NCBI GenBank assembly: GCA_016188045.1 | Contig: JACPIM010000003.1 | Span: 181-64,180, forward strand | Source: Candidatus Woesearchaeota archaeon | GTDB taxonomy: Archaea; Nanobdellota; Nanobdellia; SCGC-AAA011-G17; JACPIM01 | Length of the DNA stretch: 64,000 nucleotides | Direction of reading: 5' to 3' | Shown here: positions 3,319 to 15,204 of the stretch, in pieces | Layout: every line of letters starts with the position of its first letter | How positions within the stretch are numbered: the first letter of the stretch is position 1 | The notes under the pieces: model-generated | Database searches by the model: none | What the model was told of the DNA's origin: nothing | What the model saw: the letters and a program-made list of their open reading frames with translations, nothing else | Program-made: the position numbers and the translations under genes

Positions 3319-3439
3319 CGCCCCCACGAGGATTTGAACCTCGGTCTCAACCTTTTTGCTAAAAAGCCGCAAGGTCGAATTCTTACTGGTAATTAACCAT
3401 CAATTTAGGGTTAATAAATCCAGGCTAAACTATGGGGGC
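3319..3439 (-). tRNA. tRNA-Arg(GCG) with two BHB introns (left att copy)
   Basis: Acceptor GCCCCCA/TGGGGGC, T arm CGAGG-TTCAAAT-CCTCG; 34-nt D-loop intron (3384-3417, central helix CTGG/CCAG); 13-nt 37/38 intron (3354-3366, helix TTGC/GCAA); spliced loop TTGCGGA. Confidence 0.92.
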
Positions 3440-3458
3440 AATAAGAAACTATGTTTCT
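3320..3458. repeat. 139-bp direct repeat, left att site
   Basis: Identical by eye to 14712-14850. Confidence 0.95.
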
Positions 3459-3476
3459 ATTTTCTATGGCCTTATT

Positions 3477-3632
3477 ATGGTTAAAGTTCAAAGACATAAG
3501 AACGGATATTTTATATCAATACCAAAATCTAAAGCGAGGCTTATGGGATTAAACGGTGGAGAAGAATTTGATGTTGAATATGACAGGATAAATAAGAACT
3601 TGGTATTCATTTTGATTAATAATAAGGTGTGA
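3477..3632 (+). CDS. AbrB/MazE-like antitoxin
   Basis: MVKVQRHKNGYFISIPKSKARLMGLNGGEEFDV pattern; overlaps the PIN gene start. The track's upstream ATG lies inside the tRNA. Confidence 0.75.
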   Translation: MVKVQRHKNGYFISIPKSKARLMGLNGGEEFDVEYDRINKNLVFILINNKV

Positions 3633-4054
3633 TTAGTTTGGTAGAAAAATATTACGTCGATACTTCAATATGGATTGACCTTTATGAAGATAGGAAAGGC
3701 TATAATCAAGAGCCATTGGGAGATTTTGCCTTAGGATTATTTGCTTTGATAAGAGCAAAGAACAATAAATTAATTATTACGGATATTTTGATTAAAGAAT
3801 TAGAAATGAATTATTCTTTGGAAGAGATAAATGGAATGATCAAACCTTTTGAAGATATTATTGAAAAAATTATTAGTACAGGAAAACAACGTGAAGAAGC
3901 AAGAAATATTGCTAATAACAGGAATATACCTGCTGGAGATGTTTTACCTGCTATTATAGCAAGAGACCATAAACTGATTCTTATAACAAGAGACAATCAT
4001 TTTAAACAATTAGTGGATATTTCTGGATATTATAAACCAGAAGATATCATTTGA
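3629..4054 (+). CDS. PIN-domain (VapC-like) toxin
   Basis: YYVDTSIWID, IPAGDVL, LITRDNHF. Confidence 0.85.
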   Translation: MISLVEKYYVDTSIWIDLYEDRKGYNQEPLGDFALGLFALIRAKNNKLIITDILIKELEMNYSLEEINGMIKPFEDIIEKIISTGKQREEARNIANNRNIPAGDVLPAIIARDHKLILITRDNHFKQLVDISGYYKPEDII

Positions 4055-4307
4055 GTTTCTTTGAGATTTCTTCAAAAGCTTTTTTTCTAATTTCTTCATA
4101 TTCTTTCTCTGTTGTTTTCTTTTTTGATGCTCCTTTTAGATGAGATATACTAATCATTGCTTCTTTTAACTTTGTTTCTTCTACCTTTTCCCTTAAAGCA
4201 TTTCTAATGAATTCTGTTCTATTCTGATAGCCTTCTTTCTTGACAATACTGTCTATATCTACTAGAAATTTATCTTCTAATTTAACCGTTATCATTTCAG
4301 TTACCAT
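4047..4307 (-). CDS. Ribbon-helix-helix (CopG/NikR-like) protein
   Basis: ITVKLEDKFLVDIDSIVKKEGYQNRTEFIRNALRE. Confidence 0.85.
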   Translation of the reverse strand: MVTEMITVKLEDKFLVDIDSIVKKEGYQNRTEFIRNALREKVEETKLKEAMISISHLKGASKKKTTEKEYEEIRKKAFEEISKKLK

Positions 4308-4397
4308 ATAGTTATTGTATATACTATAGATATATAAAGATTTCTATTTTATTTTGGGTATATTTTAAATATTCGCAATACTTTCTGTTTAAACACA

Positions 4398-4682
4398 ATG
4401 TATATATCCTCAAGAGTATTCAGTAGTTCAAGAAATTTTGGATTAGTTATTATGGCCGTTATACTTTTTTCTAGTGGATATTTATATTTCTTTGAAAATA
4501 AGAGGGAATGGCTAATAGGTTTAATGTTTATTGCTTCTGCTCTTGGTATTGCAAAAGATCTTTATGGGTGGCATAAAGAAGATGAAGAATTAAAGAAAAG
4601 AAGAGATACGTTCCATATTGCTGGTGGTTCATCAAAAAAAGAAGAACCTTACAAACATATCAAAGAGTTATTAAAAAAATGA
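4398..4682 (+). CDS. Small membrane protein
   Basis: Two hydrophobic segments and a charged C-terminal tail. Confidence 0.6.
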   Translation: MYISSRVFSSSRNFGLVIMAVILFSSGYLYFFENKREWLIGLMFIASALGIAKDLYGWHKEDEELKKRRDTFHIAGGSSKKEEPYKHIKELLKK

Positions 4683-4816
4683 GACTAACAAAAAACAATG
4701 AATCTTTTATGGTGATATTGCCTAAACAGATAGCCCTAGCTAAAGGATGGGAACATGGGCAACCCTTGGAATGTAAAATAACAGAAAGAGGAGATTTATT
4801 GATAAAAGAGAAATAA
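4679..4816 (+). CDS. Small AbrB/SpoVT-like protein (not in ORF track)
   Basis: Manual translation MRLTKNNESFMVILPKQIALAKGWEHGQPLECKITERGDLLIKEK*; ATGA overlap with the upstream gene. Confidence 0.75.
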   Translation: MRLTKNNESFMVILPKQIALAKGWEHGQPLECKITERGDLLIKEK

Positions 4817-4874
4817 TAAAAATACTAATCGTGATACGGAATATTTAAAAATATAGGGGTTTATGTCTTAGATA

Positions 4875-5054
4875 ATGAGTAAAGAAAAATTTATAAAAAT
4901 ATATTCTAACCTTCCACTAAATCTTCGTAGAGAGATAATTACTATTATTGATAAGGAACCTATAACATGGAATGTTGCTTATTTAGAGATTAGAAATAAT
5001 ACCGAATTAGGTAAAAAAGTTTTAAAAAATCTGGAGGATTTAAAGATAATCTAA
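4875..5054 (+). CDS. 59-aa hypothetical protein (not in ORF track), first gene of the protease module
   Basis: MSKEKFIKIYSNLPLNLRREIITIIDKEPITWNVAYLEIRNNTELGKKVLKNLEDLKII*; TAATG coupling to the next gene. Confidence 0.8.
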   Translation: MSKEKFIKIYSNLPLNLRREIITIIDKEPITWNVAYLEIRNNTELGKKVLKNLEDLKII

Positions 5055-5263
5055 TGGTTAGTCAAGAAGAAATTAAAAACCTTGTAATAGCTAGGCTAGA
5101 GACTCTCCCTAGCAATAAAAAGATATCTATAGGTTCTAAGGGAGAGTTTACAAAAGAAGAAATTATTGAACATGTAAAAAAAGGAGATTCTATAGGTAAA
5201 ATGATGGAAGATATTGAATTGGGATTCTTGAGGGCTATGAAAGGTGGTTTATTGAATGAATAG
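5054..5263 (+). CDS. 69-aa hypothetical protein, second gene of the protease module
   Basis: Translationally coupled on both sides; weak similarity to 4875-5054. Confidence 0.8.
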   Translation: MVSQEEIKNLVIARLETLPSNKKISIGSKGEFTKEEIIEHVKKGDSIGKMMEDIELGFLRAMKGGLLNE

Positions 5264-5897
5264 TCTTCTTTTAACTAGACCAGACCACGATGATACTACA
5301 CATTATTTGTATCATTGGAGTATTGAATTTATTGAATTGGCGCAGAAGAAAAATATTAGGGTATTTGACCTAAAGGGTGAAAAAGCAACTAGAAAACAAG
5401 TGGAAGGTCATTTATCAAAAAAAGAGCCCAATTTGGTTATCTTCAATGGGCATGGCGATGTTAATATTATTGCAGGATATAAAGATGAGCCTTTGATCAT
5501 TTTGGGTGAAAATGATAGTTACCTAAACTCAAAAATAGTCTATTCTCGGTCTTGTAAATCTGCTAAGGGACTAGGTAGAAATTCTAATGCTAAGGCATAT
5601 ATTGGTTATAAAGAGGATTTTATCTTTTTTTATGAACCAGATAAACTTTCAAGACCACTTATAGATAAGACGGCACAACTATTTTTGGAGCCCACTAATA
5701 AGTTTGTGACTTCTTTAATCAAAGGTAATAGCATAGCTGAATCTCAGGATAAATCTAGTCAAGAATACCAGAATAATATACAAAGATTATTAGTTAATGA
5801 TATTAATAAGGAAGATACCCATATGGCTAAATATCTTTGGTGGAATTGGAAAAGTCAGACTATTACTGGAGATACTGATGCAAGAATTGAAACCTAA
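5256..5897 (+). CDS. Putative caspase/gingipain-like (clan CD) cysteine protease
   Basis: VIFNGHG and IVYSRSC motifs (His-Gly ... Ser-Cys) about 33 aa apart, followed by AYIGY. Confidence 0.6.
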   Translation: MNSLLLTRPDHDDTTHYLYHWSIEFIELAQKKNIRVFDLKGEKATRKQVEGHLSKKEPNLVIFNGHGDVNIIAGYKDEPLIILGENDSYLNSKIVYSRSCKSAKGLGRNSNAKAYIGYKEDFIFFYEPDKLSRPLIDKTAQLFLEPTNKFVTSLIKGNSIAESQDKSSQEYQNNIQRLLVNDINKEDTHMAKYLWWNWKSQTITGDTDARIET

Positions 5898-5922
5898 TTT
5901 TTGATATTAATTTTAATAACTA

Positions 5923-6126
5923 CTATTTCTTTTTCCAAAAAAATCCAGCCTTAGCTTTTAGTCTTTCTATTTTGCCTTCTTTTTCTAGGTCTGCTAAAAC
6001 CCTATATAGTAAATGCCAATTTATTATTTTCTTAGCTTTTTTCTGCAAATCATTGAGAACTTCATTTGTAGACTTTATTGAATCTTTCTCTAAAACCTTT
6101 AAAACCGAATCCTTGTACTTTGACAT
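5923..6126 (-). CDS. Small winged-helix DNA-binding protein
   Basis: STNEVLNDLQ...NWHLLYRVLADLEKEGKIER...FFW. Confidence 0.7.
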   Translation of the reverse strand: MSKYKDSVLKVLEKDSIKSTNEVLNDLQKKAKKIINWHLLYRVLADLEKEGKIERLKAKAGFFWKKK

Positions 6127-6256
6127 ACAAAGAGTTGTATCAAATGTTTAAATAAGCTGATATCCAAATGTTTGTATCAAATATTTTATCTATTTTTGTT
6201 ACTATAAGTAGTCAAATAAGTTTATAAATAAATGATTAAACCAAATTAATGTAAAA

Positions 6257-8362
6257 ATGTCAACTAAATTATATAAACCAAGTTTTTTAAAAAAATTAGC
6301 TATCAACGGATTAGCTTCTATTGTTGGTTTAAGTAATGTGGCCTGTTCACCAGACAGCATTCTTTCTGGATTAATTGGTTTTGGATTTGGGCATATTACT
6401 CAGCAACAAGTACAACAAACATCTACGCCAACACTTGAAGGAATTATAAAACCTACTATGACTCCTCAATTTACTGAAGAGCCAAAGCCAACAGCCACGC
6501 AAACAAATACTCCTGTTCTTCCTACTTATACGCCAACATTTATGTCTACATCAACAGGAATAAGTACCCCGATCAATACGCTTGTACCTACATATACACC
6601 ATCACCTGTTCCAATAAATACATTTACAATAACTCCTACACCAACTAAAACTACAGCTTATACACCGATGCCAACATCATCCTATACTCCTACAAGTATA
6701 CCTACAATAATATTCACAAATACTCCTGAAAGTACCATAACACCAATTCAAACTTCAACATTTACCCCTACACAAATAGAAACATCTATTCCAACTGAAA
6801 TTCCTACTGCAACTTATACTTTTACTCCGACAGCAATAAATACCATTACATCCACTAACACACCACCATCAACGTCAACACCTACTGAAACAAAAACTCC
6901 AACTTTAGAAGCAACTTTAACAGAAACTCCAATTGATACTCCTACTATAATTCCAACAATTGAATCTACATTAACTCCAACATTTACTAATACTCCTTAT
7001 GATACAAATACACCAACTAAAACACCCACATTAACAGATACACCTACTGCTACGGTTACACATACATTTACACCAACTATAACTCCAACAGAAACACCAT
7101 TGCCAACATCAACTCCCATACCAAGTGCAACACCAATACCAACTAATACTTATACACTTACGCCTACTGAAACATTTACTAGTACGATTACTCCTACTTT
7201 AACATTTACGCCAACAGCTACATCTACTTATACTGAAACTGCTACAGATACTCCAACTGTAACTAACACCCCTACTATAACTTCAACAAGCACTAGTACT
7301 TTCACAGTAACACCAACGAATACTAACACACCTACAGCAACTCCTACGTTTACTTCAACTCCAACTGATACAGCTACACCTACAAGTACGCCAACTCTTG
7401 AATATATAACTGGAACAGAATGGGAAGAAATTGCTTCATTAAATATTGCTAGGGAAAGTCATGGAGCAGCCATAGGTAATGATGGTAAAATATATGTTGT
7501 AGGCGGTGTTGTTTTGAATGAAGAACAAGGAAGATTTGTATCTCTAGATACAATAGAGAGATATGACTTTGATCAAAATAGTTGGGAAATATTAAATTCT
7601 AAACTAAACGTATCAAGACATGATTTAGCAGTTGCTTCAGATAATAACGGAAGAATATATGCTATTGGCGGGATACATAATGATTTGAGCAATATACTTA
7701 AAACTGTTGAAAGATTTGACCCATCTAAACCAGAAGATGGTTGGATTTTTGTTGCTGATTTACCTGAAATAACATATGGGTTAAAAACAATACTTGCTCA
7801 AAATAAGATATATGCTATAGGTGGTGCACATCAAGGACTTACCATAGATTATATTCCAGATAAAAAAGTTATAAAATATAATCCTGATAGTAATGCTTGG
7901 GAGTTTGGTAATGAATTAAATATTCCTCGGCTAAATTTTGGAGTAGCAAAAGATAATGAAGATAAGTTATATGTATTTGGTGGCCAAACCCTTGTTTATG
8001 GACCAGATGGACCACTTTATACATATACACTTACAACCGAAAGATTTGACTTAAATGCACCTGATTATGGTTGGAGATTTGTTGCTCCCATATTAATTTT
8101 TGGTGCTGGTGGTGGCGGTATAAGTGTTTCAAGTGCAATGGGTGACTCTGGTAGCATATTCCATATTGGAATAGATAGTGTTGGTACCGTTCAAGTATAT
8201 AAACCACAAAATGGGTTTTGGGAAATTCACTCTAATTTAAATCTCGGTAGATTCAATGCTGTTGCAGTAACGGACGACAAAAACCGTATTTATGTTATAG
8301 GTGGAAGTGCTCCCTTTCAACGTTTATCCTCTGTCCAAAGAACCGTTCTTACAACAAAATAA
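6257..8362 (+). CDS. Surface protein with Thr/Pro-rich stalk and C-terminal Kelch beta-propeller
   Basis: Lipobox-like SNVAC; about 330 aa of TPT repeats; Kelch repeats (KIYVVGG, RIYAIGG, KIYAIGG, KLYVFGG, RIYVIGG). Confidence 0.85.
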   Translation: MSTKLYKPSFLKKLAINGLASIVGLSNVACSPDSILSGLIGFGFGHITQQQVQQTSTPTLEGIIKPTMTPQFTEEPKPTATQTNTPVLPTYTPTFMSTSTGISTPINTLVPTYTPSPVPINTFTITPTPTKTTAYTPMPTSSYTPTSIPTIIFTNTPESTITPIQTSTFTPTQIETSIPTEIPTATYTFTPTAINTITSTNTPPSTSTPTETKTPTLEATLTETPIDTPTIIPTIESTLTPTFTNTPYDTNTPTKTPTLTDTPTATVTHTFTPTITPTETPLPTSTPIPSATPIPTNTYTLTPTETFTSTITPTLTFTPTATSTYTETATDTPTVTNTPTITSTSTSTFTVTPTNTNTPTATPTFTSTPTDTATPTSTPTLEYITGTEWEEIASLNIARESHGAAIGNDGKIYVVGGVVLNEEQGRFVSLDTIERYDFDQNSWEILNSKLNVSRHDLAVASDNNGRIYAIGGIHNDLSNILKTVERFDPSKPEDGWIFVADLPEITYGLKTILAQNKIYAIGGAHQGLTIDYIPDKKVIKYNPDSNAWEFGNELNIPRLNFGVAKDNEDKLYVFGGQTLVYGPDGPLYTYTLTTERFDLNAPDYGWRFVAPILIFGAGGGGISVSSAMGDSGSIFHIGIDSVGTVQVYKPQNGFWEIHSNLNLGRFNAVAVTDDKNRIYVIGGSAPFQRLSSVQRTVLTTK

Positions 8363-8431
8363 ACTCATACTTTACTCGTTATAATACTCAATTCAATAAT
8401 AAAGAAATATTTAGGAGATACTGAAATACTA

Positions 8432-9271
8432 ATGAAGAAAGTATATGAATGTGGGAAATGTGGAATAAATATTAAACCACCGATTCCAGACACTTGTCCT
8501 AATTGCGGTAAAACATTTAACAAAGAATTAATTCCCTTTTCAGCTTCTAAAAAAAGAAACAAGGTTCTAGGTTGGGTCGGGGTTTCAGTTAGTGTTTTAA
8601 CTTTAATCTCTTTAGTGGTTTTATTTGTAATCCCTGTTTCATATCCTATCACTGTAGGTTATACAATAAAAGAACCATATGATGCTCAAGAGGCTTATAC
8701 TGTTGATGTTCCATATGAAGTAACTGTTCCTTATCAAGAAAGTCTTCCTTATACTGATGTAGAAGAGATTAAAGGTGAAGAATTAAAATATGATATTATT
8801 GGTGAAAAAAATCCACAGCCAACAAGCGAGTATCAGTGCTTTTTAGTGGTATTTTGTAATTATTTTTATGAGATTACAATAAAATTAAAGAATACCGATA
8901 GTATTGCAGGAGAGTTTACCATTAATGGTGAATGGAGAGATGGTCAAGACAAAGTTTTTTCAGATGGAAAAAGAAAAGAAACTAGGAGACTAGAACCCGG
9001 AGAAACTTACAAGTTTGATTTTAAATATGACCAAGCAAAAACACAAGATGTAAAGTTCCAATATACTGTTTCTGCTAGTGAAACAACTTATCAACAAGTA
9101 ACTAAGTATAAAACTGAAACGAAGTCTAAGACTGAGACGAGATATAGAACTGAAACAAGATACAGGACAGTAATAAGATATAGAGATGTACCTAAAGAAA
9201 GAATAGAATATGGAAAGGCCAATTTATGGAGAATATGGACTAATAAAGTTAGTTATTACAGGAGAGAATAA
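8432..9271 (+). CDS. Zn-ribbon, TM and repeat-stalk membrane protein
   Basis: CGKC/CPNC, one TM helix, (E/V)PY repeats and RYRTET repeats flanking a beta-rich domain. Confidence 0.7.
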   Translation: MKKVYECGKCGINIKPPIPDTCPNCGKTFNKELIPFSASKKRNKVLGWVGVSVSVLTLISLVVLFVIPVSYPITVGYTIKEPYDAQEAYTVDVPYEVTVPYQESLPYTDVEEIKGEELKYDIIGEKNPQPTSEYQCFLVVFCNYFYEITIKLKNTDSIAGEFTINGEWRDGQDKVFSDGKRKETRRLEPGETYKFDFKYDQAKTQDVKFQYTVSASETTYQQVTKYKTETKSKTETRYRTETRYRTVIRYRDVPKERIEYGKANLWRIWTNKVSYYRRE

Positions 9272-9693
9272 TGGCAAGATGTGCAGATTGTGATAGAAAA
9301 GTGGGTGGGTTATTTGGTAGAGCTGGATATACTTGTGATAGGTGTGGTTGTGACATTTGTGGTAATTGTGTTAATCGAGAAGATGGGGAAGATTATTGTA
9401 AGAGGTGTTGGGCAAATAAATCTGGTCGTGGTTGTTTTATAGCTACTGCTGCTTATGGAACTCCTTTTTCTGAAGAGATTAATGTTTTACGTGATTGGAG
9501 AGATAAATCTTTGATAACTAATAATTTTGGCAGGTTATTTGTTAAAACCTATTATAGATTTAGTCCACCCATTGCTCAGTTTATTGAAAATAAAGAAGGG
9601 TTAAAAAAGGCTGTAAGGGTAGTATTAAATCCTTATATCAAATTTTTAAAAAATAAGGGGTATAATAAAAGAGATAAATACACTACTAAATAG
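9271..9693 (+). CDS. Zn-finger plus CFI-box-CTERM domain protein
   Basis: Four CxxC pairs, then GCFIATAAYG...LRDWRD...FVKTYYRFSPPIA. Confidence 0.8.
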   Translation: MARCADCDRKVGGLFGRAGYTCDRCGCDICGNCVNREDGEDYCKRCWANKSGRGCFIATAAYGTPFSEEINVLRDWRDKSLITNNFGRLFVKTYYRFSPPIAQFIENKEGLKKAVRVVLNPYIKFLKNKGYNKRDKYTTK

Positions 9694-9878
9694 TATATTA
9701 TGATTTAGCTTTTTTATAATGCTTTTAAATAAAATTTTCTCTATTGTAACTAACCTGTTTTACAATAAATAACTTCGTTTATACTTGGTTCTTTACTAAA
9801 ATCAATCATTTAAAACTGAGCAGAATTACTTTATTGATTCAACTTAATGAAATTCTTTGTTTATAACATCTAATTTTA

Positions 9879-10100
9879 TTAAAAATGCCTAGCTCTAACC
9901 CAAAAACCTTTTTTATATGCTCTCAACTCGTGTTCCTTTTCTGCTCTCTTGGTAGCATCCTCAATAATCTTATTTATTTTTTCATAGATTATTGGGTAGC
10001 ATTCTTTAGTTAATGTTGCATTTTGATTTATGCTTTTTACTAAAAATCTTAAATATTTTTTAATTAAAATTCTTTCTTTGTAATATGGAGTATAAACCAT
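9879..10100 (-). CDS. Putative minimal histone-fold protein
   Basis: Helix1 (IKKYLRFLVKS), loop (ATLTKE), long helix2 (…KINKIIEDATKRAEKE), terminal VRARHF. Confidence 0.55.
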   Translation of the reverse strand: MVYTPYYKERILIKKYLRFLVKSINQNATLTKECYPIIYEKINKIIEDATKRAEKEHELRAYKKGFWVRARHF

Positions 10101-10101
10101 C

Positions 10102-10590
10102 TTACTTAAAAGAATTTCTCCATGTAGTTGATAGTGAGTCTAGTAGGTTATGCCCTAATAAGCCTATTGCACTTGCAATTCCAATTATGGGCGGGAAAGC
10201 AATAAATAATATAGCTAAAACTATCAAGATAAAACTTTTTTTATGTAACCATAATGATTGGAGTCTATGAAATGGGCCAATATTACTCATGGATTTAATT
10301 GCTAAAAGTGTAAGCAGGATAATAAGAGAAATGGCTTTTTTATCTAGAACAATAAAATAAATGGCTAGTATTAGTCCTATGATTGTAAAATATCTATGAG
10401 CTAAACTTGTTTCATTATCTAAATCTGGTAACAACGTAAAAAATAAACCAATAAGTAAAAAAACTGAGTAAGGATTCATATTAAAAGTGTTCTCTTGAGA
10501 AAAATTAATCCAGTGATACTGAGAATTTAAAGCTATAAATCCAATTAATAAAACTAATCCAAAGATTACGTGGCTCTTTAGGTCTGACAT
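10102..10590 (-). CDS. Membrane-bound metal-dependent hydrolase (YdjM/DUF457-like)
   Basis: SHVIFG, LLPDLD, FHR...WLH, GHNLLD motifs within TM segments. Confidence 0.75.
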   Translation of the reverse strand: MSDLKSHVIFGLVLLIGFIALNSQYHWINFSQENTFNMNPYSVFLLIGLFFTLLPDLDNETSLAHRYFTIIGLILAIYFIVLDKKAISLIILLTLLAIKSMSNIGPFHRLQSLWLHKKSFILIVLAILFIAFPPIIGIASAIGLLGHNLLDSLSTTWRNSFK

Positions 10591-10591
10591 T

Positions 10592-10774
10592 TTATAGCTC
10601 GTTAGATATTATTTCTTGTTTCTTTGGTTTTGGTTCATTCTTGAAGAGGTTGGCGGAATTCCCTATCCTCAAAGAAATATATTTTTTACCATTTTTATCT
10701 ATATTAATCCATCCTGCGACATCTAAATTGCCCTTATAATCTGGTTTCCTTCCATTTGATTTTTTATTTTCCAT
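10592..10774 (-). CDS. Small DUF736-like (putative ssDNA-binding) protein
   Basis: KPDYKG...AGWINIDKNGKKYISL. Confidence 0.5.
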   Translation of the reverse strand: MENKKSNGRKPDYKGNLDVAGWINIDKNGKKYISLRIGNSANLFKNEPKPKKQEIISNEL

Positions 10775-10786
10775 GTTTTATACCTC

Positions 10787-12226
10787 CTAAGATATTATTT
10801 CTAAGGTGTCAATTTTTTTCGGAAGTACTGTAGAAGACTTCCTTACTATGACAGTATATGGGAATAAATTCTTGACATCCTGCTCTTTATTCTGTCTCTC
10901 TAGGTCAAATATTAAGTCTAGAGAGAATTCTGGATGGTTTATTGGGGTGTAAATAGGAGTATATTCCTTGATAGCTTCAATTATATTAAAATGACTTAAA
11001 TGCTCAAATAAGTCATCAAAGGGCATATTGATTAACCCACTTTGACTCCCTCCTTGACATCTTCTATAGAAGACGGAGTTGCCTTCTTTATGTGAAAATT
11101 CAATTAGGTTCTTATCCTCTAGTTCCCTAATCCTTTTCTTTATGGTATTTTTTGATTTTATACTTAAACTCCTTTGTATTATCTCCCTAGGTATTGGTTT
11201 AGTAAAATCTCCTTTAGTGTATTCTTCAACAAAGTCTAAAATTGTTTGTAACCTTTCATCAAAACCCTTATATGATTGGTTAAAGAATCTGCCACATATT
11301 TTGACGGCGTTTAGAAAATCTTGTGGCTCTGAAACAACAAACATAATTCCATTAATTTCTATGGTGTATCTTTGTAATTGAAAAAGCCAAGATATAGCAC
11401 AAGTGAAGGCTAGAAGTTTTTTTAAGTCTCTTTGGGATCGAGGATTATCATAATTTATAATTTCCTTTCCTTCTTCATCCTCTAATAAATAATTCCAATA
11501 TGGTATTAATACATAATCTACTTTCAATGATTCAAATCCTTTTTTTATCCATGAATTATTATTTCCTTGAGACTCAATAAGGGTTAAGGGGTCACCATGT
11601 TTAATAATCGTGTCTTCATTCACTGCCCTTGTTTTATTAGGATTTCCTCTTAAGGCTATATCTATAAAACGAGTTGCCGATTCTTCATCATTCGAAATTT
11701 CTGTTGTAGAATACAATACCGTCTTTTGTTCTTGCTTGCTTGTTCTTGTTGTTTTATAACCAGTTAAAACATCTTTTTTTAATGAAATAGTTCCACCTTC
11801 ACTCATTTGTTTTATGGTTTCTTTTAAATGGTAGTTTGCACCATCAATTTGTTCTTTGTTAACTTCCGAATAACAGATTATATCATATTTAGCTATATCA
11901 TCTTCCATCACGCTTCTAGTTGCGTTAGTTAAGAAAATATAAGAGTCATCTGGAAAGTGTTTCAAGATTGATCTCATTAAATTATCTTTTCCTACTGAAG
12001 TATCCCCAGAAAATTTTATTGATTTTCTTAAACTAGAAGGTTTTAATTTAGAGGTACATGTGCCTATGAATCCGGTCATCTTTTCGTTATCATCATTGAT
12101 GTGGTCTTTGGATAGTTCTTCATGAATATAATACAAAAGTTTAGGGCTTCTAAATTTTGTTTTGGCCTCCGTAAATAAACCAATTTCTTGTTCTGAAACT
12201 TCTTTAGTAGTTTTTATTAGAGTCAT
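10787..12226 (-). CDS. P-loop NTPase with C-terminal wHTH, putative replication helicase of the element
   Basis: Walker A GDTSVGKD, Walker B-like IICYSE, wHTH (NTIKKRIRELEDKNLIE). Confidence 0.65.
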   Translation of the reverse strand: MTLIKTTKEVSEQEIGLFTEAKTKFRSPKLLYYIHEELSKDHINDDNEKMTGFIGTCTSKLKPSSLRKSIKFSGDTSVGKDNLMRSILKHFPDDSYIFLTNATRSVMEDDIAKYDIICYSEVNKEQIDGANYHLKETIKQMSEGGTISLKKDVLTGYKTTRTSKQEQKTVLYSTTEISNDEESATRFIDIALRGNPNKTRAVNEDTIIKHGDPLTLIESQGNNNSWIKKGFESLKVDYVLIPYWNYLLEDEEGKEIINYDNPRSQRDLKKLLAFTCAISWLFQLQRYTIEINGIMFVVSEPQDFLNAVKICGRFFNQSYKGFDERLQTILDFVEEYTKGDFTKPIPREIIQRSLSIKSKNTIKKRIRELEDKNLIEFSHKEGNSVFYRRCQGGSQSGLINMPFDDLFEHLSHFNIIEAIKEYTPIYTPINHPEFSLDLIFDLERQNKEQDVKNLFPYTVIVRKSSTVLPKKIDTLEIIS

Positions 12227-12437
12227 CTGTTTTCCTCCAAAAACTTAAGAATAATTTTTCCCGAACTATTTGGCTAGGCGTAATCTTTTTATTTTCGAGA
12301 ATTTGTCTTGCAGTTCTTTCACGTTCGATAAGCTCTAAAATTTCTTCGTTAAGAAAAAAGGTGCTCTTCTTATAGATGCTCTTTGGTCGAGCAAAATTTA
12401 AATATAAGTTTTCTTTTAAATTATCTGTATTCGTCAT
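12204..12437 (-). CDS. Small RHH-like DNA-binding protein
   Basis: KKSTFFLNEEILELIER...TPSQIVREKL. Confidence 0.55.
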   Translation of the reverse strand: MTNTDNLKENLYLNFARPKSIYKKSTFFLNEEILELIERERTARQILENKKITPSQIVREKLFLSFWRKTDDSNKNY

Positions 12438-12534
12438 AATACCTTCTTGAGGGAAAAATTTCCTCTATTATTTTTCTTCTTCTTTTATCGTATCAATTAA
12501 ACATTGAAGCCAGTCATCTTTTTTGTTTTCCATT

Positions 12535-12599
12535 TTACTTACTTGATAAAGTAAGTAACTTTATAAATCTTTTGGTTACTTACTTTAGAGAGTAACTAA
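12535..12599. promoter_or_regulatory. Paired palindromic operators flanking a TATA box in the divergent promoter
   Basis: TTACTTAC-N8-GTAAGTAA (12535-12558) and TTACTTAC-N8-GTAACTAA (12576-12599) around TTTATAAA (12560-12567). Confidence 0.7.
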
Positions 12600-12631
12600 A
12601 TTTTATAAAGGATTAAATTAGTAAATTATTT

Positions 12632-13372
12632 ATGGAACATTACAAACAAAAGAAATTTTATAGCATTATTAATAGTGCCCCACTATCACACATAATCTTT
12701 CTTGTAATCGGTGGCATAAAAACTACTACAGATTTAATAAAAACTACCAAGTTAAGGGATAGTTTATTATCAAAAAGATTAAGGATTCTAGAAGATAATG
12801 GTTTTATAATTAAGAAGAGGGAAGGTAAAACAAGATATCTTTATATTAACAATGAACCCCTGATTGAAACTTTTATTATTGCAGCTCTTTCTTACAGATT
12901 TAGTATAACTAATAATAAAATAAATAGGTGGGTGGAATCAAAAGAAATTAAAAATATTTTTAAAAAAGTAAAGAAAAATAAACTCTTGTTTGGTCTGATT
13001 GATTCTATTATCGAGTCTTATTTTAAATCTATTAAAATTAGGCGTTCTATGATTCATGAAACTTGTCCATTATGTAAACATCCTTTATCTATAGAAACTC
13101 ATGGTACATCTTGCACTAATCCAGAATGCGATTTTATTTATATTATAAAAGAAATTTTTACCTTATATGAAGTTATGTATGATTTGGTCGATCTTATAGT
13201 AATATCTCTTGAAGATACACGTGGTTTTTGGCCATATTTAACTAAGAAGGAAAAAAAAGAGTTAAAAGACTTAGATATAATTTTTGGTCTTGGTAAGATT
13301 AAATTAATTGATTTTAGTATGAATATCTATCATAATTATTTTAGTAGTATAAATAAAAAAAAGGAAAAATAA
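12632..13372 (+). CDS. wHTH (ArsR/MarR-like) regulator with Zn ribbon
   Basis: LLSKRLRILEDNGFIIKKREGKTRYLY; CPLC...CTNPEC. Confidence 0.7.
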   Translation: MEHYKQKKFYSIINSAPLSHIIFLVIGGIKTTTDLIKTTKLRDSLLSKRLRILEDNGFIIKKREGKTRYLYINNEPLIETFIIAALSYRFSITNNKINRWVESKEIKNIFKKVKKNKLLFGLIDSIIESYFKSIKIRRSMIHETCPLCKHPLSIETHGTSCTNPECDFIYIIKEIFTLYEVMYDLVDLIVISLEDTRGFWPYLTKKEKKELKDLDIIFGLGKIKLIDFSMNIYHNYFSSINKKKEK

Positions 13373-14659
13373 CTATTTTAATTTATTTATTATCTCTATT
13401 AATCTAGGATTTTCCTTTATTTTTTCAGCTAAGGCTTCTTTCATTGAAGGTATTAGAGCATTTAGCAACTCTTCTTTTAGTTGTTCTCTTTCTATTGCCT
13501 TTTTTCTATCTAATAACCTTTTACAGAATGGACAAACCTTTTCAGCAAAACCAACACTTCGACCGCAGATACATGTTTTAGTCTTTGGCAAAAATTGTTT
13601 ATATTTTGGGTCATCGATTAATCCTCTTTTAGCTAATTCTTTCCTATATGAGTCTAAATTATTACTTAGATCATAAGTAGATAATTGTCTTGTAGAAGTC
13701 CAACCTGCTCTATGTTGTATTTCAACATCACTGTCTCCTCTTAGTCTGCTAAACGTAACACCATTCCTTTTTAACGAATAAGCTGTAATTCTTTTATTTA
13801 ATCCTATTTTTTTACATGCTTTCCTTAATTTCTTATTTATATTATAAGGAGTTAATTGTTTATCTTTTCTTCCATTTGCTATAAATAAAAATGAATCTTT
13901 ATCTTGTTTAAACTTGTGTTGGTCATAAAATTTTAGTAAATAAGGATAACTGTCAATACATTGTAGAAATTTAGTTCCTTCTTTACCATGGGAACTAATA
14001 AAAATTCTCGCATGATTTTCATTTATTTCTAAATCACTTATTCTAGTGTAGCATATTTCTTGTGGTCTCCCAAGCGATTCAACAGATAAATTAAGGTAAA
14101 ATTGCATTTGTGGATCATTACTAAAATAATTCACTAATTTTTCAAATTCTTCCCATGTTAATCTATCATCTTTCAGTTTTTGTTTGCTTTTATCAATTCT
14201 TTTAGATAGGTGTCTTACAACAAAAGGAGTTAATGTATCATCTGTTCTGCCTTTTTCGTCTTTTTCTGGGAATAGGTCTTTCCATATGAATTTTAGATTT
14301 TTAATAAAGTCGGCTTTAGATTGAGAACTTTTGTTTACTTCATGAGCTAAGGCTACTATTTCATTAATATCATCCCTATCACATTCTGTTAAGTTTTTTT
14401 TGGTTGTGTTTACTATAAATAATAATGTACAAAATACTCTTAATCTTCTTACATAACTAGTATCCCTACTTTCAAAGATTTTAGCTAATTTCTTAAAATA
14501 GGTTAAATTGGATGGATTTTTACAATAATATTTCCTAGTAGCTCCTTTTTTTGATTTTGCTTTGGGCAATTCTTTTAACTGCTCTAAATTAGCTATAAAT
14601 CTTTCATACCTTGCTTTATTTCCATATATGTCATCCTCAGCCATTTTAAACTCCTGCAT
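13373..14659 (-). CDS. int: Tyrosine recombinase/integrase with C-terminal Zn ribbon
   Basis: LGRPQEI (R), HGKEG (K), YSLKRNG, HRAGW, STYD (Y); CICG...CPFC; 52 bp from the att repeat. Confidence 0.92.
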   Translation of the reverse strand: MQEFKMAEDDIYGNKARYERFIANLEQLKELPKAKSKKGATRKYYCKNPSNLTYFKKLAKIFESRDTSYVRRLRVFCTLLFIVNTTKKNLTECDRDDINEIVALAHEVNKSSQSKADFIKNLKFIWKDLFPEKDEKGRTDDTLTPFVVRHLSKRIDKSKQKLKDDRLTWEEFEKLVNYFSNDPQMQFYLNLSVESLGRPQEICYTRISDLEINENHARIFISSHGKEGTKFLQCIDSYPYLLKFYDQHKFKQDKDSFLFIANGRKDKQLTPYNINKKLRKACKKIGLNKRITAYSLKRNGVTFSRLRGDSDVEIQHRAGWTSTRQLSTYDLSNNLDSYRKELAKRGLIDDPKYKQFLPKTKTCICGRSVGFAEKVCPFCKRLLDRKKAIEREQLKEELLNALIPSMKEALAEKIKENPRLIEIINKLK

Positions 14660-14710
14660 CGTTACTAGTTTATATTATTTAGTCGACTGAGCATTGGAAA
14701 ATAGAAATCT

Positions 14711-14831
14711 TGCCCCCACGAGGATTTGAACCTCGGTCTCAACCTTTTTGCTAAAAAGCCGCAAGGTCGAATTCTTACTGGTAATTAACCATCAATTTAG
14801 GGTTAATAAATCCAGGCTAAACTATGGGGGC
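14711..14831 (-). tRNA. tRNA-Arg(GCG) with two BHB introns (right copy, native upstream flank)
   Basis: Same sequence as the left copy; introns 14746-14758 and 14776-14809; discriminator A versus G in the left copy. Confidence 0.92.
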
Positions 14832-14850
14832 AATAAGAAACTATGTTTCT
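14712..14850. repeat. 139-bp direct repeat, right att site
   Basis: Identical by eye to 3320-3458. Confidence 0.95.
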
Positions 14851-14904
14851 TATCAACTTCCTTGTAATCACTCGTTTCTTATCAACTTCTTTAAAAACAA
14901 GGGG

Positions 14905-14918
14905 GAAAGGTTTATAAA
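14905..14918 (+). promoter_or_regulatory. BRE/TATA promoter of the Zn-finger/ef1b operon
   Basis: GAAAGG-TTTATAAA ending 22 nt before the ATG at 14941. Confidence 0.6.
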
Positions 14919-14940
14919 TATTTATTGGGGCGGTTTAAGG

Positions 14941-15204
14941 ATGGTTAAAAAAGAAAAAGTTGTTGAGGAAGTTGTATTAGATAAGCCTGTTTTAGAAGAA
15001 GTTAAAGCAGAAAGTAAATTAGAACTTAAAGAAGAAAATCTAATAGATATTAGTAAAGAGCAAGAAATTAGGCTTATACCTGTGGGTTCTGTAATTTTTC
15101 CTTGTCCTAATTGCGGTAAAACTACAGTTAGTAGGACTTTTAGTGAAAGAAGGTTAGCTACACCTTATAAATGTGAAAACTGTAGTTTTGTAGGTCCTAA
15201 TTAG
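14941..15204 (+). CDS. HVO_2753/DUF1610-family Zn-finger protein
   Basis: FPCPNCG...YKCENCSFVGPN; canonical position upstream of aEF-1beta. Confidence 0.85.
   Translation: MVKKEKVVEEVVLDKPVLEEVKAESKLELKEENLIDISKEQEIRLIPVGSVIFPCPNCGKTTVSRTFSERRLATPYKCENCSFVGPN

Follow-up and report, generated by a model that had tools for sequence, protein, structure and literature searches.

A three-gene cassette of DPANN archaea and candidate phyla radiation bacteria encodes a predicted minimal clan CD protease and two novel small proteins

The 64,000-nucleotide stretch of DNA analysed here, hereafter the window (positions 181 to 64,180 of contig JACPIM010000003.1 from a Candidatus Woesearchaeota archaeon), carries on its forward strand three small genes, A, B and C, which on sequence grounds form a self-contained operon with its own promoter. 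Gene A (4875-5054) encodes a near-neutral protein of 59 amino acids, gene B (5054-5263) an acidic protein of 69 amino acids, and gene C (5256-5897) a basic protein of 213 amino acids that is predicted to be a minimal cysteine protease with the caspase fold of clan CD. Hence, what is described is a new clan CD family with novel small partner proteins encoded in trans. As to function, we propose that A-B-C is a three-component toxin-antitoxin (TA)-like or abortive-defence module with C as its protease effector, a proposal that has, in our judgement, a nearly even chance of being right. The original prediction for this DNA, made from the sequence alone, had described three translationally coupled genes for proteins of 59, 69 and 213 amino acids, the first of them missed by the open reading frame (ORF) listing. 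The overlapping frames are indeed there, and A was overlooked because it falls just under the 60-amino-acid default of the ORF lister. The TAA stop codon of A (5052-5054) and the ATG of B (5054) have one base in common, the last 8 nt of B (5256-5263) are also the first of C, and a hydrophobic N-terminus is found in none of the three proteins (0/3).

The placement of C in clan CD is based on its predicted fold and on the location of its catalytic residues. The clan CD sheet has the strand order b2-b1-b3-b4-b5-b6 and the elements succeed one another along the chain as b1-a1-b2-a2-b3-(small beta section)-a3-b4-a4-b5...b6, with the catalytic histidine, followed by a glycine, at the C-terminal end of b3 and the catalytic cysteine at the C-terminal end of b4 (McLuskey and Mottram, PMC4357240). 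The AlphaFold2 model of C, built on a 35-sequence alignment (pLDDT 95, pTM 0.91), reproduces that order: b1 (residues 3-8), a1 (13-31), b2 (35-40), a2 (46-55) and b3 (60-64) are followed by a small beta section (71-73 and 79-82) and then by a3 (87-90), b4 (94-98), a4 (103-109), b5 (114-118), a helical segment of about 80 residues and b6 (201-205). The predicted dyad occupies the corresponding places, with His66-Gly67 after b3 and Cys100 after b4. These residues belong to the motifs FNGHG (His66, codon 5451-5453) and SRSC (Cys100, codon 5553-5555), which had been noticed from the start together with the lack of a signal peptide; both observations are correct, the first beta strand of C beginning already at residue 3. 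When the model was compared with the PDB by Foldseek, the top matches were all clan CD proteins, namely SAVED-CHAT (8tl0, E=1e-6, probability 1.0), legumain (4awb, 1e-4) and gingipain RgpB (4ief, 7e-4), with caspase-4 and a C11 protease among the further ones, and in BFVD a giant-virus "caspase domain protein" was matched with E=2e-4 and an rmsd of 3.6 A. Model and matches thus bear out the caspase-like fold on which the original prediction had staked its proposal.

Conservation in the family tells the same story. Over 255 full-length members, Cys100 is kept in 255, His66 and Gly67 in 254 each and Gly65 in 253, so that the second property on which the proposal had been made to depend, a conserved His/Cys pair, is firmly established; the dyad and its flanking glycines are kept even in branches at 34-40% identity. 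Because of this conservation, C is almost certainly an active enzyme, as far as can be predicted from sequence. The family is large: a HMMER scan of 1.84 billion representatives collected 1007 clusters at 50% identity with E<=1e-3, and 161 with E<=1e-30. Its members measure about 205-220 amino acids and are all named "hypothetical". Searches of Pfam and NCBIfam with A, B and C returned no meaningful match (for C, nothing but noise at E<=1), no precomputed Pfam domain is attached to any of about 170 C homologues, sequence and profile searches of the PDB with C gave no match, and none of the three proteins matches a PHROG. Neither did C match significantly the profiles of C14 caspases and metacaspases, C13 legumain, C25 gingipain, C11 clostripain or CHAT, and for this reason C is placed, as a new family inside clan CD, outside its named families at the sequence level.

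Candidates for the residues shaping the S1 pocket of C can also be named. In clan CD a residue at L1 or at the start of a1 sets the P1 preference; Asp or Asn is preferred by virtue of Arg87 in caspase-7 and of Arg44/His45 (plus Asp231) in legumain, and Arg by virtue of Asp365 (plus Glu500) in MALT1 and of Asp163 in RgpB (PMC4357240). The candidates in C are R8 in L1, at the end of b1, the acidic D/E12 at the start of a1, and D137 after b5. Among the 255 members D137 is found in 253, an acidic residue at position 12 in 253 (Asp in 220, Glu in 33) and R8 in 229; T7-R8-P9 are among the conserved positions noted in C. By analogy, R8 on L1, with its conservation of 90%, would favour Asp or Asn at P1, as in caspases and legumain, and the acidic position 12 together with D137 would favour Arg or Lys. 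Since the acidic pair is conserved more strictly than R8, the guess is tilted towards Arg/Lys.

The three genes belong together well beyond the window. In 80 fetched loci searched by tblastn with A, B and C, gene A was detected in 72/80 and gene B in 73/80, directly upstream of C and in the order A-B-C; the trio was incomplete at contig edges, in a few decayed copies and in four distant relatives. Over about 70 loci of DPANN archaea and of bacteria of the candidate phyla radiation (CPR) the order is fixed and the spacing tight, a recurrence well beyond chance, which answers in the affirmative the question, raised with the original prediction, of whether the three genes co-occur elsewhere. The commonest junctions are a 4-nt overlap between A and B and a 4- or 8-nt overlap between B and C. 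Nothing else accompanies them: on clustering three genes per side no neighbour family was present in more than 5 loci, the largest cluster being Fic-like, and the membrane-protein, AbrB-like and winged helix-turn-helix (wHTH) neighbours of the window adjoin the trio in no other locus. The Pfam families of the immediate neighbours are mixed (RadC, DUF4143 ATPases, helicases, Fic, GNAT, methyltransferases, Cas1, sigma-70, aldolase, T2SSE, glycosyltransferases). A conserved fourth gene or a defence-island signature was considered and discarded, the largest neighbour cluster being limited to 5 loci.

Signals read from the sequence delimit the same unit. A putative element with B recognition element (BRE) and TATA-like parts, AATATTTAAAAATATA (4840-4855, forward strand), is centred about 27 nt upstream of the ATG of A. 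In the archaeal loci (n=21) TATA-like motifs pile up at about -32 to -25 relative to this codon, with 14 matches in the -30..-26 bin versus 1-4 in other bins, and their usual form is AAAG-xTTTAAAT. The location of the element would imply an independent transcript, leaderless or with a very short leader, that starts at A, and its fixed position confirms A as the genuine first cistron. Oligo-T terminates transcription in archaea, and the T run at 5898-5902 (forward strand), which directly follows the stop codon of C and precedes a convergent gene, is the likely end of the A-B-C transcription unit.

Proteins A and B are conserved, each in its own way. The A family has invariant F6, P14, R18 and W32 and a conserved C-terminal ...LKII, and the B family displays the motif RL..LP..kiSIGs.GeF.k.ELI.HV...d.iGkKi.e.E..FL followed by a tail that varies in length and sequence. 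The median pI is 6.2 for A, 5.4 for B and 8.7 for C, and this contrast between acidic to neutral small proteins and a basic enzyme is compatible with A and B being partners of C and speaks against a role as DNA-binding regulators. A combined model (A~B) was obtained from the read-through translation of nine loci where a single stop separates A from B within one reading frame; its first row is the CPR homologue L059, 54% and 49% identical to the A and B of the window, and the unconserved N-terminus of B serves as linker. The single-chain model of L059 reached a pLDDT of 88.9 and a pTM of 0.79 with a low-confidence linker. A is predicted in it as helix, short helix, beta-hairpin, helix and helix, and B as helix, beta-hairpin, helix and long helix. 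The high pTM in spite of the poor linker suggests that A and B pack against each other, and this is suggestive only, the chain being artificial and the alignment unpaired. Foldseek found nothing significant for the A~B model in the PDB, the best matches being prefoldin beta (E=0.2) and Z-alpha (E=4.6), and profile searches of A and B against the PDB likewise gave nothing significant (sigma-E region 4, E about 0.9).

The two small proteins had been called related on the basis of a loose common pattern. The pattern (LP, I, (P/F)T, (EI/HV), (L/I)GK) is present, conserved within each family and located on equivalent elements, since both proteins run in the order helix, beta-hairpin, helix, helix and have in common the helix-turn motif E[VI]xNNTxLG / HVxxGDxIG; homology is the part of the claim that did not find support, hhalign giving a probability of 4.5%. 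A and B as demonstrable paralogues were accordingly rejected; even with a B-like domain of Planctomycetes, treated below, A reaches no more than 10%. A ubiquitin-like nature of B, whose sequence ends in ...KGGLLNE, was rejected too: a modifier of that kind would have a beta-grasp fold and a conserved C-terminal Gly-Gly, whereas the 69 B sequences do not conserve the GG and B is predicted to fold as helix, hairpin, helix, helix.

The cassette has the distribution of an accessory element. The host genome (1.02 Mb, 92.5% complete) has a single copy, and the cassette was present in 2/4 genomes of the genus, 11/61 close relatives and 27/301 high-quality genomes of the phylum; in the 61 relatives' genomes matches to C, B and A were adjacent in 10. 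Some genomes of the phylum contain up to three copies, some copies have in-frame stops, and there are CPR metagenome-assembled genomes (MAGs) with two copies (L055/L057 and L056/L073). The congener that has the cassette carries it twice, and only A-B-C is common to the loci of both genomes, no other gene of the island that surrounds the trio in the window being found there. Its C copies are 41-43% identical to the C of the window, while a housekeeping protein from the flank reaches 82%; one genus thus harbours divergent lineages of the cassette side by side. Overall, the C family is confined almost entirely to DPANN and CPR, two radiations of ultra-small symbionts. In a maximum-likelihood tree of C the archaeal sequences (Woese-, Nano-, Aenigm- and Micrarchaeota) and the bacterial ones (many CPR lineages and one Omnitrophota) are split by a single change, with weak branch support (54/40). 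A viral origin was examined and dropped, since IMG/VR contained no relative and none of the three proteins matched a PHROG. Cassettes were also found in MAGs titled "Methanosarcinales" or "Gammaproteobacteria" (L008, L038, L039, L041, L062, L065), where C nests in DPANN or CPR (Saccharibacteria/Microgenomates) clades; probably the titles are mistaken or the contigs were assigned to the wrong bin. Decayed cassettes include L070, L071, L073, L075, L076 and the copies of genomes G004 and G091, in which C is frameshifted, truncated at the N-terminus or interrupted by in-frame stops and B, and usually A, is intact, assembly errors in MAGs being a possible cause. In L061, B was not detectable between A and C.

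A functional proposal has to account for the bareness of C, which has neither prodomain nor inter-subunit linker, sensor domain or signal peptide. The structurally characterised clan CD enzymes are all kept latent, either in cis, by AP/LSAM in legumain, by a prodomain that inserts Arg126 into S1 in RgpB and by the N-terminus in metacaspases, or in trans, as by the inhibitor XIAP (PMC4357240). As C is devoid of any cis latch, this latency rule makes A and B the natural candidates for a latch in trans. A and B, acting as one unit, would bind C and gate it as an inhibitor, a pseudosubstrate or a cleavable latch; if they were lost or displaced, C would cleave cellular targets. This latch argument, together with the polarity of the genes, the charge pattern, the patchy and multicopy presence, the decayed copies and the location of the trio in an island among other TA genes, leads to the TA-like reading.

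The layout agrees with it as well: small genes come first and are coupled to the effector, and the cassette is accessory, multicopy and associated with mobile genetic elements. Three-component type II TA operons are exemplified by omega-epsilon-zeta and paaR-paaA-parE, which the trio resembles in having two small coupled genes before a larger basic enzyme and in its patchy, multicopy and partly decayed presence on mobile islands among TA genes. It differs from them in that no antitoxin or regulator family is matched by A or B, neither of which looks like a DNA-binding protein; moreover, to our knowledge, no TA toxin is a caspase-fold protease. A more specific form of the proposal would make the trio a proteolytic conflict system particular to DPANN and CPR, in which a heterodimer of A and B, two mini-proteins of novel fold, would be the latch, its release by infection, element loss or stress would lead to dormancy or death, and B would be a regulator that other effectors could reuse (e.g. 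the YhcG nuclease of locus L092); in this form the proposal is rather doubtful.

A number of results weigh against a TA-like or defence module. A and B found no match among antitoxin or DNA-binding families (HTH, RHH, AbrB, Phd), and with no family match, no significant structural neighbour and an acidic to neutral charge they do not have the aspect of the DNA-binding autoregulator of type II TA systems. That A and B act as one unit draws on the A~B model, with the caveats of chain and alignment given above. Many neighbours of the trio are ordinary housekeeping genes (sigma factors, aldolase, RNase J, glycosyltransferases). The clean archaeal/bacterial split in the C tree indicates that exchange of the cassette between domains is rare or ancient, with lineages mixed within each domain, and no copy was found in the viral contigs of IMG/VR. 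PADLOC-DB 2.0 gave no match for A or C and, for B, only Cas7 at noise level (E=0.03). Disruption affects C in about 5 loci versus A or B in 2, which is about the expectation from gene length, and a decay bias was for that reason set aside as a sign of toxicity. The defence role envisaged by the original prediction is consequently not demonstrated: to the lack of PADLOC matches and viral copies is added the fact that only a minority of the neighbours are of defence type. The parts of substrate, adaptor or inhibitor that it suggested for the small proteins are conjectural.

The best of the alternatives is a physiological switch unrelated to conflict, in which C would process A and/or B as substrates or adaptors and thereby regulate the episymbiotic lifestyle of DPANN and CPR. 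The near restriction of the family to two radiations of ultra-small symbionts and the many copies amid housekeeping genes speak for it, as do candidate P1 residues in the small proteins, the invariant Arg18 in A and the near-invariant R14, K50 and K63 in B. Clan CD enzymes are, besides, typically switch proteases of narrow specificity (PMC4357240), and there is a precedent in HetF and PatU3 (PMC9457339). However, a patchy presence within one genus, divergent multiple copies, pseudogenes and an integrase island would be unusual for a housekeeping role critical to lifestyle, and no conserved target gene lies nearby; we regard this switch as unlikely, although it deserves to be kept in mind.

Control of a mobile element after the manner of ImmR/ImmA, with A and/or B as DNA-binding repressors and C as an anti-repressor protease that triggers excision or replication, is far less probable. 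The trio does lie within an integrase-bounded island here, A and B are small and helical, one B member gave weak, sub-threshold matches of winged-helix/HeH type and the A~B model the weak Z-alpha match (E=4.6). Against this, the median pI values of A and B lie on the acidic to neutral side (6.2 and 5.4), neither protein has an HTH or RHH family match, neither an integrase nor an element gene is a conserved neighbour in about 70 other loci, and the copies of the congener have none of the genes of this island.

Clan CD includes enzymes of reverse or transfer reactions, such as the legumain-type peptide ligases and GPI transamidase, and C could be a transpeptidase or ligase that joins or cyclises A and/or B or attaches them to a target. 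The strictly conserved C-terminus of A (...LKII) and the presence of legumain among the top structural matches would be in keeping with it, and R8 with D137 loosely recalls the zwitterionic Arg44/Asp231 pocket of that enzyme; but B has a tail of variable length and sequence in which the GG is not kept, and neither A nor B shows, near its C-terminus, a conserved Asn/Asp followed by what could be recognised as a propeptide or recognition tail. At this level of analysis nothing sets a ligase apart from a hydrolase, and we regard such an activity as very improbable. That C is a non-catalytic caspase-fold scaffold merely binding A and B is scarcely credible, for although caspase-fold pseudo-enzymes exist, e.g. 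pseudo-orthocaspases and the N-terminal domain of Raptor (PMC6426788, in its available portion), His66, Cys100, Gly65 and Gly67 are essentially invariant, the signature of a retained active site.

Returning to the TA-like reading, comparison with known systems shows what the trio has in common with them and where it departs. SAVED-CHAT (8tl0), which C matches best in structure, is a caspase-fold protease with a His/Cys dyad that works inside prokaryotic cells as a switch in conflict systems (CBASS/type III CRISPR signalling). C differs from it in having no Pfam CHAT match and no SAVED, TPR or other sensor domain, and the trio in lacking conserved cyclic-nucleotide or CRISPR genes nearby, its partners being two novel small proteins. 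Legumain (C13, 4awb) likewise has a six-stranded core active as a single domain, its S1 residues Arg (L1/helix 1) and Asp (L5) loosely resemble R8 and D137, and its latency is imposed by a helical cap. Nevertheless, legumain is secreted or lysosomal, carries a C-terminal prodomain in cis (AP plus LSAM), is activated by pH and has no sequence similarity to C, whereas C is predicted to be cytoplasmic and has no prodomain. In gingipain RgpB (C25, 4ief), Asp163 at helix 1 sets the specificity for Arg, similarly to the acidic position 12 of C, and a separate polypeptide segment plugs S1 as a pseudosubstrate, which is the model proposed for A/B; but gingipains are large, secreted and multidomain, are inhibited by a prodomain in cis and have no relation to C at the sequence level.

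Caspase-fold proteases devoted to one small protein are a further point of comparison. In separase-securin, securin is a pseudosubstrate inhibitor of a clan CD protease. HetF of Anabaena, of clan CD, cleaves the small protein PatU3 (PMC9457339). In both cases the biology of the protease is defined by one dedicated small protein, but HetF and separase are large and multidomain, their partners are not encoded in a fixed co-transcribed cassette and they have no homology to A, B or C. The literature search yielded no paper describing the A-B-C family.

In eukaryotic cell death and, as has lately become clear, also in the immunity of bacteria (CHAT, Craspase, gasdermin-activating proteases), caspase-fold proteases act as central executioners and switches. 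If the interpretation given here is true, C would be a bare catalytic domain of about 213 amino acids whose regulation has been moved to two co-encoded mini-proteins and, should the conflict-system reading hold, no smaller self-contained caspase-fold protease would be known. The structure of the whole complex could then reveal a minimal solution to caspase latency, and the proteins are tiny and look soluble. Although it numbers about 1000 clusters at 50% identity, the family has no entry in Pfam, NCBIfam, PADLOC or PHROGs and was not met with in the literature searched; A-B-C is one of the few gene modules specific to both DPANN and CPR, whose accessory biology is almost wholly unknown.

More distant relatives and isolated copies extend the picture. 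Three loci of Planctomycetes encode a C-like protein about 26% identical to C, and the ORF directly upstream has a B-like C-terminal domain (B hidden Markov model, E=2e-5 to 5e-4; hhalign 92%, E=6e-7 over 60 columns) that bridges to the A/B motif E[VI]xNNTxLG; A was not detected in these three loci. Among the 61 relatives' genomes, B-like proteins without A or C (55-68 bits) are found in L092 (3621-4870; G037:C40), where the gene is translationally coupled to, and overlaps the stop codon of, a gene for a YhcG/DUF1016 PD-(D/E)xK nuclease and is followed by genes for a membrane protein and a Cas4-like protein, in L093 (1104-1325), where B is solitary, and in L094 (3082-3312), where B adjoins an archaeal ATPase and two convergent genes taken for an AbiE-like pair on visual inspection alone. 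Stray copies of A occur in L096 (2504-2949), translationally coupled to an 89-amino-acid Zn-ribbon protein, with NYN and RNase H-like genes close by, in L097 (2489-2659), upstream of a pair that looks wHTH-like and nucleotidyltransferase-like by eye (Pfam matches neither), and in L098 (2398-2927), where A adjoins a chimera of the B N-terminus with a C-terminal DUF488 fragment and has genes for an AbiEii toxin and a DUF4143 ATPase alongside. Genes for AbiEii, DUF4143 ATPases, YhcG nuclease, SoFic and Cas1/Cas4 lie beside stray copies and some trios, and the stray copies sit in regions rich in conflict-type genes. B, and perhaps A, may be a more widely used small module, with B as a possible partner for other effectors. 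In a Chloroflexota MAG (L077, 3980-4903) a distant C-like protein of 307 amino acids bears a C-terminal CarboxypepD_reg domain; the surrounding short coiled-coil ORFs are phage-like in look, and the preceding ORF of 81 amino acids contains by eye a B-like "LSALP...RIG" stretch that the B profile did not detect.

In the window the trio is located inside an 11.4-kb segment (3320-14850), a putative integrated element. The segment is bounded by two 139-nt direct repeats, 100% identical and 11392 nt apart from start to start, an att-like left one (3320-3458) and a right one that marks the island boundary (14712-14850). At its start the left repeat reads as the 3' end of a tRNA in reverse complement (T-loop GGTTCAAATCC); the T-loop and acceptor sequence were seen by eye only, and neither ARAGORN nor Rfam called a tRNA at the repeat. 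At the right end a tyrosine integrase is encoded on the reverse strand (13373-14659; PF00589 Phage_integrase, E=3.5e-11, above the gathering score). Comparison with the congener for an empty site was limited by its contig, which stops right at the tRNA, and by the lack of conservation in the left flank. The trio had been described as element cargo, which fits this genome, where repeats and integrase bracket the 11.4 kb, and does not extend to others, where it lies in many unrelated contexts.

The genes around the trio are diverse. Upstream of A lies an AbrB-like gene of 45 amino acids (4679-4816; MazE/AbrB Pfam match, E=4e-4), and convergent with the trio, on the reverse strand, a wHTH-like gene of 67 amino acids (5923-6126; MCM4_WHD/FUR, E about 0.004-0.007); a membrane protein of 94 amino acids is also encoded nearby. 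The original prediction had named the first two as flanking genes, and Pfam matches do exist for them, but both are sub-threshold and neither gene accompanies the trio elsewhere. The 67-amino-acid protein matches phrog_9799, of unknown function (E=8.7e-7), the sole phage-family match in the immediate neighbourhood. The remaining cargo of the island comprises an AbrB-like/PIN pair (3432-4054; AbrB-like match sub-threshold), a ribbon-helix-helix gene (4047-4307), a Kelch-repeat protein of 701 amino acids with a long Thr/Pro-rich region (6257-8362), an ArsR-like wHTH gene (12632-13372), Zn-ribbon proteins and a 479-amino-acid protein with a weak LexA-type wHTH match.

The att repeat reaches into coding sequence at both ends of the island. 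Its last 27 nt (ATGGGGGCAATAAGAAACTATGTTTCT; 3432-3458 and 14824-14850) are the start codon and first codons, 9 in all (MGAIRNYVS), of two ORFs, the AbrB-like ORF of the island (3432-3632) and a chromosomal Zn-ribbon ORF (14824-15204). As the repeat supplies the beginning of both, integration would keep the 5' end of the chromosomal gene and lend the same start to the island gene.

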